A stretch of 11,072 bases of DNA, taken from the IMG/VR virus record IMGVR_UViG_2698536560_000011, positions 1 through 11,072 of that record; one strand, written 5' to 3'. Positions 7,882 to 10,311 of the stretch are shown in pieces. The notes below the pieces were generated by a model. It worked only from the letters and a program-made list of their open reading frames with translations, did not search any database and was not told the origin of the DNA. Position numbers and translations under genes: made by a program. Source of the DNA: a virus. Its lineage: Duplodnaviria; Heunggongvirae; Uroviricota; Caudoviricetes. Position 1 is the first letter of the stretch. Every line of letters starts with the position of its first letter.

Positions 7882-7986
7882 CTGTTCACCTCTGTTCACC
7901 ATAAGAAAAAAGATAAGTAATACAGTAAGTTAAAGGGTGAACAATCGCAGTAATGACTGTTCACCGTCTGTTCACCACTGTTCACC
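7882..7986. repeat. iteron cluster: five direct CTGTTCACC copies plus one inverted TGTTCACC; crr/ori-like alpha-binding repeats
   Basis: Direct copies at 7882-7890, 7892-7900, 7957-7965, 7968-7976, 7978-7986, spaced 10-11 bp. Inverted copy GGTGAACA at 7936-7943. TGTTCACC is the octamer I recall as the P4 alpha-protein binding iteron. Lies between the divergent sid and alpA promoters. Confidence 0.7.
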
Positions 7987-8144
7987 CGCTCATGGACTTT
8001 TTGTGCTGTTTACTACTGTTTATTTTTATTAATTCACTGAAATAAATAAGAAAAAACAATTTGTATTTCACTATAAAAAATTCCAAGTCCTTCAGAACCC
8101 TTTGAGACCCTTCCAGTCCGAATGAATAAAAAATATACAGTCAT

Positions 8145-8162
8145 TGTAAGGCAGCCTGAACA
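8145..8162 (+). promoter_or_regulatory. candidate Delta site (TGT-N12-ACA) of a PLL-like late promoter driving alpA/vis
   Basis: TGTAAGGCAGCCTGAACA sits in the AT-rich region upstream of alpA. A -55 centre would put the transcription start near 8208, giving a 5' UTR of about 57 nt. A single site, and such sites occur by chance. Confidence 0.35.
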
Positions 8163-8264
8163 AATCCCCCCTGTTGCGTCTGCCAAAAATATTCACAAAA
8201 TAAAGCGCTACCCGAAGCCGGACGGACTTATCCGGTGCTGTATGGACATTAACGAGGTAGCCCG

Positions 8265-8531
8265 ATGCAAGCTGTTTTTTCTTCCCCGTCTCCTGCCCCT
8301 GTGACGCCACTGATGCCGCTGCCGGACATCACGCAGGAGCGTTTTTTACGTCTGCCGGAAGTGATGCACCTGTGCGGCCTGTCACGCTCGACCATCTATG
8401 AACTCATCCGTAAGGGGGAATTTCCGCCGCAGGTGAGCCTTGGCGGTAAAAATGTGGCCTGGCTGCACTCTGAAGTCACTGCATGGATGGCCGGTCGCAT
8501 TGCCGGACGCAAACGGGGGTACGACGCATGA
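8265..8531 (+). CDS. alpA: AlpA/Vis-family helix-turn-helix regulator (excision / recombination directionality and late-promoter regulator)
   Basis: [50 protein letters not shown] is a classic AlpA-type HTH. GAGG lies 8 nt upstream of the ATG at 8265; an alternative start at 8313 would give 72 aa. Stop overlaps a downstream ATG as ATGA (8528-8531). Confidence 0.85.
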
Positions 8532-8657
8532 TGATGCCCGCTCTGCAAAAAGTCCCTTTTTCTGGCTTGCCTTTTTCCGGCATTTGCGGATATAGTTTTT
8601 CCGCTGCCGCAAAATCGGCAGCCGGGCGTGAGAACCCGAGCAATCTAACGGCGACAT

Positions 8658-8681
8658 ATGACGCGCCATGCGTCTTTTTTT
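8658..8681 (+). terminator. short GC stem plus T7: candidate intrinsic terminator in the early-operon leader
   Basis: GACGC (8660-8664) / GCGTC (8670-8674) with a 5-nt loop, then TTTTTTT at 8675-8681. It lies inside the 214-aa ORF predicted at 8483-9127. Confidence 0.4.
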
Positions 8682-8863
8682 GTGTCGCAATCAACGCCAC
8701 AGAGCGCCAGATTATGGTGTGGTGTGTGGTCAGTCGTGCAGATGGCATTCCGTGCATCCTGCCCGCGTCCGCTCATTATGCCGCAGAGTCAATGGTAGCT
8801 CAGGCGGGGCAGCCTCCGGGCTGGCCGGTATCCTGTGAAGCCGGTATTTCCACCCCCGTCTGG

Positions 8864-8912
8864 GCTATCGCCATCGAGCGTGGAAACTCCGGCGATAGCG
8901 TTATTTGCTATT
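8864..8912 (+). terminator. hairpin plus U-rich tail just upstream of a strong ribosome-binding site
   Basis: GCTATCGCC (8864-8872) / GGCGATAGC (8891-8899), 18-nt loop, followed by GTTATTTGCTATT, then AGGAGG at 8916-8921. Confidence 0.35.
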
Positions 8913-8929
8913 CACAGGAGGCTGCCATC

Positions 8930-9127
8930 ATGGCTACACCCCTTACCCCCTCACACCCTGAATTTGTCTTTGTGTTTGCGGCTGTCCGTCGCACAGACCG
9001 TCATCCCCGTATCTGTATGCTTCGCACCGTCGCCGGTGATGAACGCAGTGCCCGCCGTTCCCTTGTCCGTGACTATGTGCTCTCCCTTGCTGCCCGTCTG
9101 CCGGTGGTGGAGGTGTCCCGTGCGTAA
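8930..9127 (+). CDS. hypothetical small protein, 65 aa
   Basis: ATG at 8930 sits 8 nt after AGGAGG (8916-8921). It is in frame with the longer 8483-9127 ORF but is the only start there with a strong Shine-Dalgarno. Its stop overlaps the next gene's GTG start by 8 nt. Confidence 0.45.
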
Positions 9128-9407
9128 TAAAAAAGCCCCTCAGACCGTCTCAGCACGTCATGACGCCCGTGAACACCTCAGCATTGAGGCTTACCATAAG
9201 CTCAACCGCGCCAGCGCCGTATCCCGGTTTGTTGGGGGTGATTTGATTCACCGTGAACTCTCCGGCCTGCATCAGCTCTACATTCCGCATATTTTCAGCT
9301 ACCTGAATGAAGATATTGAGTTTGTGCTGAATGAGCTGAAAGCCAAAGGCCTGTGCCGCGATTTTCTCGCCCAGCAGAAAGACCGGGGAGACAGGACGCA
9401 TGTTTGA
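9120..9407 (+). CDS. hypothetical protein, 95 aa, in the position where P4-like elements carry small early proteins such as epsilon
   Basis: GTG at 9120 sits 6 nt after GGAGG (9109-9113). The 3' end overlaps the next ORF's ATG by 8 nt. Assignment to epsilon is not supported by any motif I can see. Confidence 0.5.
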
Positions 9408-9855
9408 TTTTCCCCAGCCCGGTGAGATTTACCGTTCTGCCGGTTTTCCCGATGTGGCCGTGGTCGGCATTCTGGAAGACGGTATTCCGTGGGAAGTGCC
9501 GTACCGCTGCCCGGACATTGTCTGGAACCCGTACCGCCGTAAATTCAGTATCCTTGTGCGTATCCTCGCCGACGGGCGCACCACAGACATCCCGCTGGGG
9601 CGTTTTCTGCGGGAATTTACCTGTGACCGTCCTGACCTGTTTAAACGCAGCCCCGTAAACCGGCATGCGGTACTGAAAGAAATGGCCGGAGACCCGGAAT
9701 TACAGAAATGGCGGGAGAAATATCTGGATATTTACCCGCAGGACACTGTTCCGGTCAGCCGGGCGGCACCGGTGGCGCGGGAATGGCGGGAAATTCCCCG
9801 CACGGAGCCTGACCCGGAAATCACACCGGATAACAGTTACCGCAATTATCTGTAA
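9400..9855 (+). CDS. hypothetical protein, 151 aa
   Basis: GGGGAG Shine-Dalgarno 9 nt upstream of the ATG; translationally coupled to the upstream ORF. Same length as the P4 ORF of unknown function that I recall upstream of alpha (orf151); homology unverified. Confidence 0.7.
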   Translation: MFDFPQPGEIYRSAGFPDVAVVGILEDGIPWEVPYRCPDIVWNPYRRKFSILVRILADGRTTDIPLGRFLREFTCDRPDLFKRSPVNRHAVLKEMAGDPELQKWREKYLDIYPQDTVPVSRAAPVAREWREIPRTEPDPEITPDNSYRNYL

Positions 9856-9928
9856 TTAAAAAACGACACCCGAAAAATTAAATGTGCGTATTCGCGCAGG
9901 GATACGCACGTCTTCAGGAGACGCAGAT

Positions 9929-9994
9929 ATGCCTTATCAGTTAATGCAACCGGCACGGAATGCAGTCATCTGTCACAGGGAGGAAAGCAAATGA
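9929..9994 (+). CDS. 21-codon upstream ORF ([21 protein letters not shown]), candidate leader peptide
   Basis: ATG at 9929 sits 8 nt after AGGAG (9916-9920). Its TGA stop (9992-9994) overlaps the ATG of the 106-aa ORF (9991-9993) as ATGA. Confidence 0.3.
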
Positions 9995-10311
9995 AAACAC
10001 CCTTACCGCCCGTCTTACGCGCAGCCCTTTACCGTCGTGCTGTCGCCTGTGCCTGGCTGACCGTGTGCGAACGTCAGCACCGCTACCCGCATCTCACCCT
10101 TGAATCACTGGAGGCGGCCATCGCCGCTGAGCTGGAAGGCTTTTATCTGCGCCAGCACGGTGAGGAAAAAGGGCGCCAGATAGCCTGTGCCCTGCTGGAA
10201 GATTTAATGGAATCCGGCCCCCTGAAGGCCGCGCCGTCGCTGTCCTTTCTCGGGCTGGTTGTGATGGATGAACTCTGTGCCCGTCACATAAAAGCGCCGG
10301 TACTGCACTGA
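9991..10311 (+). CDS. hypothetical protein, 106 aa
   Basis: GGGAGG Shine-Dalgarno (9977-9982) 8 nt before the ATG. Lies directly upstream of the primase, whose AAGGAG ribosome-binding site overlaps this gene's stop codon (10309-10311). Confidence 0.7.

Follow-up and report, generated by a model that had tools for sequence, protein, structure and literature searches.

Immunity in phage P4 depends on the CI RNA, which is processed from an untranslated leader and pairs with seqA upstream and seqC downstream, resulting in premature termination (PMC4825925, PMC3632133). seqA and CI have been described as structural homologues of IsrK and C4 (PMC4825925, PMC3632133). According to PMC10111431, which cites Forti et al. 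1999, the long ORF of this region is eta, whose translation is coupled to that of the alpA homologue and takes place only on transcripts of an upstream late promoter; the same paper states that eta translation prevents termination and that Kil is a truncated C-terminal form of 65 aa. The immI regions of P1 and P7 (c4, a1/b1, a2/b2, icd, ant; RF01695, RF03163) have an RNA of the same family and clan as the one found in the window analysed here (the whole stretch of DNA, 11,072 nt). As in the window, this RNA lies in the leader of the repressed operon and has targets upstream and downstream, the latter over the ribosome-binding site of an Icd-like gene. Control in P1 is by translation-coupled termination, as in the model proposed below. 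However, the downstream genes of the window serve P4 replication and derepression whereas those of P1 and P7 encode an antirepressor, and the P4-like RNA module lies inside a maintained long frame, unlike that of immI. The Gifsy-1 IsrK-orf45-anrP locus (with STnc1160) is also similar, as the window leader matches the isrK model and terminated and read-through forms are made from one promoter. In Gifsy-1 the C4-like RNA is overlapped by a small ORF that is conserved in its nucleotides but not in the protein it would encode (PMC4825925). That ORF parallels the pre-kil part of eta. The difference is that Gifsy-1 IsrK is described as a trans activator of its own long transcript, whereas the P4 leader is described as a target of CI.

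DNA comparison showed 97.9% nucleotide identity between the window and phage P4 over the full length of 8200-9400, with 25 substitutions in this 1.2 kb. Pfam and PHROG matches recovered the P4 gene order (int, psu, delta, sid, vis, cI region, epsilon, orf151, orf106, alpha), and the genes are collinear with the annotation of the P4 record X51522; the window thus has the gene set of a P4 or P4-like satellite in P4 order. Upstream of the immunity region is the vis/alpA homologue (P4 ORF88, 88 aa; 8265-8531, + strand; Pfam Phage_AlpA, E 7e-21), at the place where ORF88 is annotated in the P4 record. Downstream, epsilon (95 aa; 9120-9407, + strand; P4 annotation and phrog_10016) comes next after kil in the operon under repression. 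The RNA elements of P4 are found at equivalent coordinates (C4 at 8788-8875, isrK at 8603-8680). The original prediction had proposed a P4-type immunity region from position only, and the identity to P4, three Rfam matches and co-varying complementary pairs now take that proposal beyond positional inference. It is very probable that the interval serves a P4-type satellite prophage as its immunity region and that it works as the published P4 system does. The immunity feature itself is already known, being textbook P4 biology, and finding it here is a correct rediscovery of a well-characterised system.

Other parts of the window gave some additional observations. A 472-aa ORF at 1-1419 (- strand) matched the PADLOC anti-phage defence models PD-T7-1 (E 2.8e-69) and PD-T7-5 (E 2.6e-35) and had no Pfam match; it is found on the left side of the integrase and may not be part of the satellite. 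Between int and psu, a 435-aa ORF at 3993-5300 (- strand) had phrog_14906 (function unknown) as its sole match, with no Pfam or PADLOC match. The int-psu interval of P4-like satellites is a reported site of variable defence cargo (PMC9122126). A tRNA scan of the window gave 0 tRNAs by which the attachment site could be placed.

The whole window was scanned against Rfam and three + strand matches scored above gathering, all within the interval flagged by the original prediction; a permissive scan of 8200-9300 detected no further families. The strongest signal, absent from that prediction, was a three-helix RNA at 8788-8875 (+ strand), the CI or C4-type antisense immunity RNA. It matched Rfam C4 (RF01695) over the full-length model (1-87) with 76.6 bits against a gathering score of 45 (E 5.6e-14), so the covariance-model search that had been suggested as a check did find a P4 CI-type RNA. 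Its fold had a z score of -5.0, with 0/200 shuffles as good. Across 27 sequences, 99.9% of cells in the structure were paired and there were 4 compensatory pairs, compared to 29-52% paired in slid controls, which supports a closing stem (8793-8809 with 8854-8870) and two hairpins. The exposed segments are the loop 1 site GGCAGCCUCC (8808-8817), the loop 2 site UCCUGUGAA (8831-8839) and the single-stranded junction UUUCCAC (8847-8853). This core (query ~590-770) was also seen at 69-88% identity in the unrelated temperate phages phiKO2, PY54, D6, RCS47 and phiP27 and in Klebsiella phages, as well as in P1-like plasmids (1,195 plasmid places), making it a widely shared RNA module.

Immediately downstream is a hairpin with a U-rich tail (8864-8912, + strand), with arms GCUAUCGCC (8864-8872) and GGCGAUAGC (8891-8899) and tail GUUAUUUGCUAUU (8900-8912). 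This hairpin, one of the elements reported originally, is real (-18.9 kcal/mol, z -3.1, 2/200 shuffles as good), and its tail is U-rich without being a canonical U-run. It has 3 compensatory pairs among the compared loci, with 98% of cells paired versus 23-68% when the partners were slid. The 5' arm shares 8864-8870 with the 3' side of the CI closing stem, which makes the CI fold and this hairpin mutually exclusive. The loop, GUGGAAA (8880-8886), is complementary to the CI junction. From its position between cI and timm, we take 8864-8912 to be a candidate for P4 t4.

The leader (8603-8681, + strand) is a seqA or IsrK-like RNA. Rfam isrK (RF01394) matched 8603-8680 with 72 bits against a gathering score of 50 (E 3e-14) and c4-a1b1 (RF03163) matched 8590-8642 with 49.5 bits against 46.7, both on the + strand. 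The leader comprises hairpin 1 (8603-8622), hairpin 2 (8623-8638) with the loop GUGAGAA (8628-8634), the word TCTAACGG (8644-8651) and an intrinsic terminator with its stem at 8660-8674 and seven U at 8675-8681. The last of these is the GC stem followed by a T7 tract of the original prediction (GACGC 8660-8664 and GCGTC 8670-8674, then seven T at 8675-8681). In a simple terminator scan 1 was found versus 1.5 expected, a count not above chance, and the leader fold was not significant by energy alone in the shuffle comparison, with a z score of only -1.4. However, 93% of cells were paired in the leader structure with 5 compensatory pairs, including the terminator stem. This terminator hairpin (8660-8681) lies inside the isrK match and its stem co-varies, with G-C changed to C-G in 6/25 relatives. 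We take it to be P4 t1, based on its position between PLE and cI; both terminator-like elements of the original prediction would then fit P4 positions, t1 for this one and, by inference, t4 for the other. The roles of t1 and t4 in P4 are reportedly described by Briani et al. 2000. A promoter scan gave a sigma-70-like site, TTGCCT-18-TATAGT (8567-8596, + strand), which lies inside eta as the equivalent of the constitutive P4 promoter PLE. Its -10 falls on the 'consensus -10' of the X02534 annotation and it ends 7 nt upstream of the start of the isrK match. Predicted from the sequence, the leader thus has its own promoter and Rho-independent terminator.

The original prediction had not been able to identify the complementary pairs that P4 immunity would need, yet they are present. 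CI loop 1 GGCAGCCUCC pairs with GGAGGCUGCC (8917-8926) at 10/10 Watson-Crick positions, CI loop 2 pairs with UUCACAGGA (8911-8919) at 9/9 and the CI junction pairs with the downstream hairpin loop at 7/7. The seqC target (8911-8926, + strand) consists of TTCACAGGA (8911-8919), the partner of loop 2, and the loop 1 partner that overlaps it. Together the downstream targets cover the Shine-Dalgarno sequence of kil, AGGAGG at 8916-8921, which is located 8 nt before the ATG at 8930 and is the strong ribosome-binding site pointed out originally; all four of the features reported there were located where they had been placed or within 2 nt. RNAduplex comparison of the CI core with long flanks or 30-nt windows was non-discriminating in this GC-rich region (-30 to -48 kcal/mol everywhere), and exact-complement and fixed-register counts were used in its place. 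For CI loop 1, an ungapped search for an upstream partner gave only 6 bp (GGCAGC:GCUGCC, 8603-8608), which is not claimed as a site.

These pairings were compared across 22 loci from other Enterobacterales genera, six from E. coli chosen by DNA similarity, and P4 itself. Both RNA elements were found in all complete loci, including 20/20 relatives from other genera. In a fixed register, CI loop 2 matched the leader word (8644-8651 in the window) at 7-8 of 8 positions in 25/25 other elements, involving 10 words, whereas cross-type combinations gave a mean of 4.2 and a maximum of 6. The CI junction matched two loops, that of leader hairpin 2 and that of the downstream hairpin, at 7/7 in the same number of other elements (25/25), involving five words, against a cross-type maximum of 5, and its match to the downstream hairpin loop was 7/7 in 26/26 elements. 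A larger sample, retrieved with a DNA pattern inside CI, comprised 99 distinct elements with 6 junction words, 17 loop-2 words and 40 combinations of the two; 93 of the 99 match at all four sites. This co-variation of words is strong evidence, at the level of sequence comparison, for the antisense interactions and for modular immunity specificity. P4 has the same loop 2 word and seqC as the window, but its CI junction is TTCTCAC where the window has TTTCCAC, with a compensating change in the downstream loop. From P4 to the window, the junction changed from UUCUCAC to UUUCCAC and the downstream loop from GUGAGAA to GUGGAAA together; 8849/8850 and 8883/8884 are compensatory double substitutions between two near-identical genomes.

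One part of the circuit deviates from this pattern. The downstream CI sites of the window are all perfect, but the match between its seqA and CI has been lost. At 8644-8651 the leader has the word TCTAACGG where P4 has TTCACAGG, a difference of four substitutions (8645, 8646, 8648 and 8649). The resident CI matches the leader at just 5/7 positions (the GUGAGAA loop at 8628-8634 with the junction UUUCCAC) and 4/8 positions (the 8644-8651 word), which is the cross-type level, so complementarity of CI to the upstream seqA or a1b1 site was not found. Of the 99 elements, the window alone combines two heterotypic leader sites with two matched downstream sites, and its closest E. coli relatives (L025 and L003) have matched leaders. 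A one-off error in the odd leader word was considered and rejected, as the identical 31-nt context is present in 31 further contigs from IMG/VR and metagenomes. Of the 29 contigs that are informative, 28 combine this context with the CI loop 2 CCGUUAGA, the junction UUCUCAC and the downstream word TCTAACGGA, a set that, from the matching of these words, is a sibling immunity type. At informative sites, the window has sibling alleles at every position in 8552-8695 and P4-type alleles at all 13 positions in 8834-9049. This pattern marks the window as a recombinant whose crossover falls after the leader word and before CI loop 2, between 8695 and 8834. Since the leader words are of the sibling type, pairing of CI with its own seqA is predicted to be weak while seqC control is intact, and the upstream half of the published circuit may work abnormally in this copy. 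Mismatches of other kinds were seen in L048 (metagenome contig OHKJ01001871.1), with a P4-type CI loop 2 and both targets of the sibling type (4/8 and 4/8), and in L111 (IMG/VR), with mismatched downstream sites and a broken eta frame.

Such a leader could instead have been produced by assembly, through the joining of reads from two P4-like satellites resident in one host. In favor of a chimera of this kind, there are up to 6 copies of the region per E. coli genome, the two parental types are about 95% identical, and no exact match to 8597-8930 was found in 5,426 complete E. coli genomes (best 98.5%) or in IMG/VR and metagenome contigs. However, the mosaic extends over the whole of 7900-10200 with many switches and with some alleles of neither parent, which is typical of natural P4-like mosaicism, and L048 and L111 are further natural mosaics. 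A chimera is thus unlikely, and we favor a real recombinant. A separate question is what the leader RNA does. It might be mainly a trans-acting regulator like Salmonella IsrK, activating downstream genes by making a translationally inactive read-through transcript accessible, and not just a passive target of CI. The isrK match of 72 bits is in line with this, as is the finding that Gifsy-1 IsrK acts in trans on isrK-orf45-anrP with STnc1160 in the position of C4/CI (PMC4825925), and in S. Typhi TraDIS results point to a requirement for the IsrK-like elements that P4-like prophages carry (PMC3632133). However, the P4 literature gives seqA the role of a target, and the mismatch between the leader words and the resident CI would weaken an IsrK-type contact with its own transcript as well. 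A mainly IsrK-type function is therefore rather unlikely, and the reading of seqA as a CI target is retained.

The long ORF raises a similar question, as it could be an accident of a structured RNA or a protein gene in its own right. The 214-aa ORF (8483-9127, + strand) is present as originally reported, in the same frame as eta (8528-9127, + strand; 199 aa), for which the most likely true start is the ATG at 8528. This ATG overlaps the TGA stop of vis (8529-8531) as ATGA at 8528-8531, the overlap recurs in most other genera, and RefSeq annotates the same 600-nt CDS in relatives. The original prediction regarded the ORF as non-coding. Carried to its full extent, this would make the region purely non-coding and the ORF a chance open frame in GC-rich structured RNA, which agrees with the location of the only strong Shine-Dalgarno sequence at 8916-8921 and with the lack of a codon signature upstream of 8930. 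There, no excess of variability was found at third positions (0.28/0.32/0.30 and 0.41/0.46/0.47), and pN/pS in the true frame (0.76-0.83) was within the range of the shifted frames (0.64-1.16). However, the frame is kept open. There were 0 in-frame stops in 20/20 diverged relatives versus 77 and 109 in the other two frames, and although these relatives are not phylogenetically independent, only 1-5% of dinucleotide shuffles were stop-free. In a sample retrieved by DNA pattern, and thus blind to the ORF, the eta phase ran through CI without a stop for 450 nt or more in 120/127 contexts, or 115/117 where the leader is present, with a median open length of 564 nt compared to 138 and 159 nt in the other phases. 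Leader-to-CI distances took ten values, and the seven values that cover 115/118 elements all equal 2 mod 3; the distance from CI to the kil ATG was 124 or 127 in 114/115. Considering also the start-stop overlap in most genera and the published account of eta translation (PMC10111431, citing Forti 1999), a chance frame is very improbable. The frame is broken in L021, L030, L111 and L143, and in L030 an 'ash family' pseudogene and a separate 65-aa Icd-like CDS are annotated. Among CI-pattern contexts without an isrK-like leader, 5/10 lacked the open frame. In larger phage contigs that have the CI core but no isrK-like leader (L077, L113, L114, L151, L163), no long frame stays open across CI, and it would appear that only P4-like arrangements with a leader maintain the frame.

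The opposite reading is that a functional 'Ash' or repressor protein is made from the ORF, that its amino-acid sequence is what counts and that the RNA matches are secondary. It starts from the same open frame and from database matches. Residues 37-161 matched Pfam PF10554 Phage_ASH with 90.2 bits against a cut-off of 26 (E 1.5e-25), and the ORF matched phrog_6928, 'transcriptional repressor', with 297 bits; these matches arise because this frame was annotated with a 137-aa 'cI / put. ash' product in old P4 records. However, purifying selection on the amino-acid sequence was not detected. The lack of a third-position excess applies here too, and pN/pS of 0.76-0.79 upstream is like that of shifted frames, compared to 0.17 in kil. 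In a codon-aware alignment of 20 full-length frames, the peptide is conserved only in patches that map one-to-one on the hairpins, the terminator and CI, and is hypervariable and oddly composed between them. The Phage_ASH match corresponds to nt 8591-8965, exactly the RNA module from seqA to seqC, and the Icd-like domain (NCBIfam) is limited to the kil portion. The literature, too, has moved cI from a protein to an RNA (PMC4825925, PMC3632133). A functional Ash protein is thus very unlikely, and from these alignments Pfam Phage_ASH appears, in these elements, to largely model a translated RNA module. Labels for 8590-8965 and its RefSeq counterparts (L025-L030) are inconsistent, including 'transcriptional repressor' (NC_001609, PHROG), 'ash family protein' (the L030 pseudogene) and 'host cell division inhibitor Icd-like protein'; where the last is applied to the full length, the domain covers only the last 65 aa.

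Between these extremes, a coding signature is confined to one part of the long frame, kil (8930-9127, + strand; 65 aa, Icd-like; NCBIfam phage_ICD_like, E 9e-22), which has its own Shine-Dalgarno sequence and is conserved at the protein level. Variability by codon position in 8930-9124 was 0.22/0.17/0.42, and pN/pS was 0.38 (0.17 in close pairs) compared to 1.1-2.8 in shifted frames. The claim of a non-coding ORF therefore holds upstream of 8930 in the sense that codon-periodic conservation is absent there, but not for kil, and not for the frame itself. The suggested comparison of RNA-like and codon-like conservation came out the same way, with RNA co-variation on one side and codon-like conservation of kil and a stop-free frame on the other. 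Upstream of kil, selection appears to act on translatability and not on protein sequence.

Combining these results with the published P4 system, the following mechanism is proposed. The constitutive promoter at 8567-8596, inside the eta frame, would transcribe the leader, and most transcripts would end at the intrinsic terminator at 8660-8681, giving a seqA/IsrK-like RNA of about 78 nt. Transcripts that read through would carry the CI RNA (8788-8875), to be processed to a stable small RNA. CI would then pair in trans with nascent transcripts, its junction with 8880-8886, its loop 2 with 8911-8919 and its loop 1 with 8917-8926, and so cover the kil ribosome-binding site. Without translation of kil, transcription would terminate at the hairpin and U-rich tail at 8864-8912 and then at the Rho-dependent terminator timm. 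The timm fragment is X51522 8365-8209 (PMC3177188), which converts to 8930-9086 in the window and lies inside kil. As a result of this termination, epsilon, orf151, orf106 and the alpha primase would not be expressed. Late-promoter transcripts, which begin upstream of vis, would instead be translated from the ATG at 8528, coupled to the vis stop, through seqA, CI and seqC, and since ribosomes on eta would block the RNA structures, the pairings and Rho loading, late transcription would escape immunity. What selection would preserve upstream of kil is then the open frame and not a protein. For RNA processing, the action of CI in trans, the termination sites and promoter use, this model follows the literature or what the sequence suggests. 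That full-length eta is translated from the late promoter only and prevents termination gains evolutionary support here from the open frame and from indels in multiples of three.

The main value of this analysis is correct annotation, in that the active parts of the region are two small RNAs, their targets and the 65-aa Kil peptide. The eta frame offers a clear example from nature in which translation itself is selected for and the product is not. Immunity specificity in P4-like elements is modular, resting on two short words that occur in 40 combinations in 99 elements and are each copied at three places, and recombination can therefore create mismatched circuits like that of the window. It is quite doubtful, though conceivable, that this natural recombinant, with a sibling-type seqA (GUGAGAA and TCTAACGG) and CI and seqC of the P4/L025 type, is functional and splits the two jobs of CI. 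If it is, repression of the lytic operon through seqC would stay self-specific and CI-dependent termination in the leader, that is CI autoregulation, would be lost. Alternatively, leader termination could be under the control of the CI of another satellite, or the abundant leader RNA could titrate that foreign CI; either would, if true, provide a route to cross-talk or competition between co-resident satellites.
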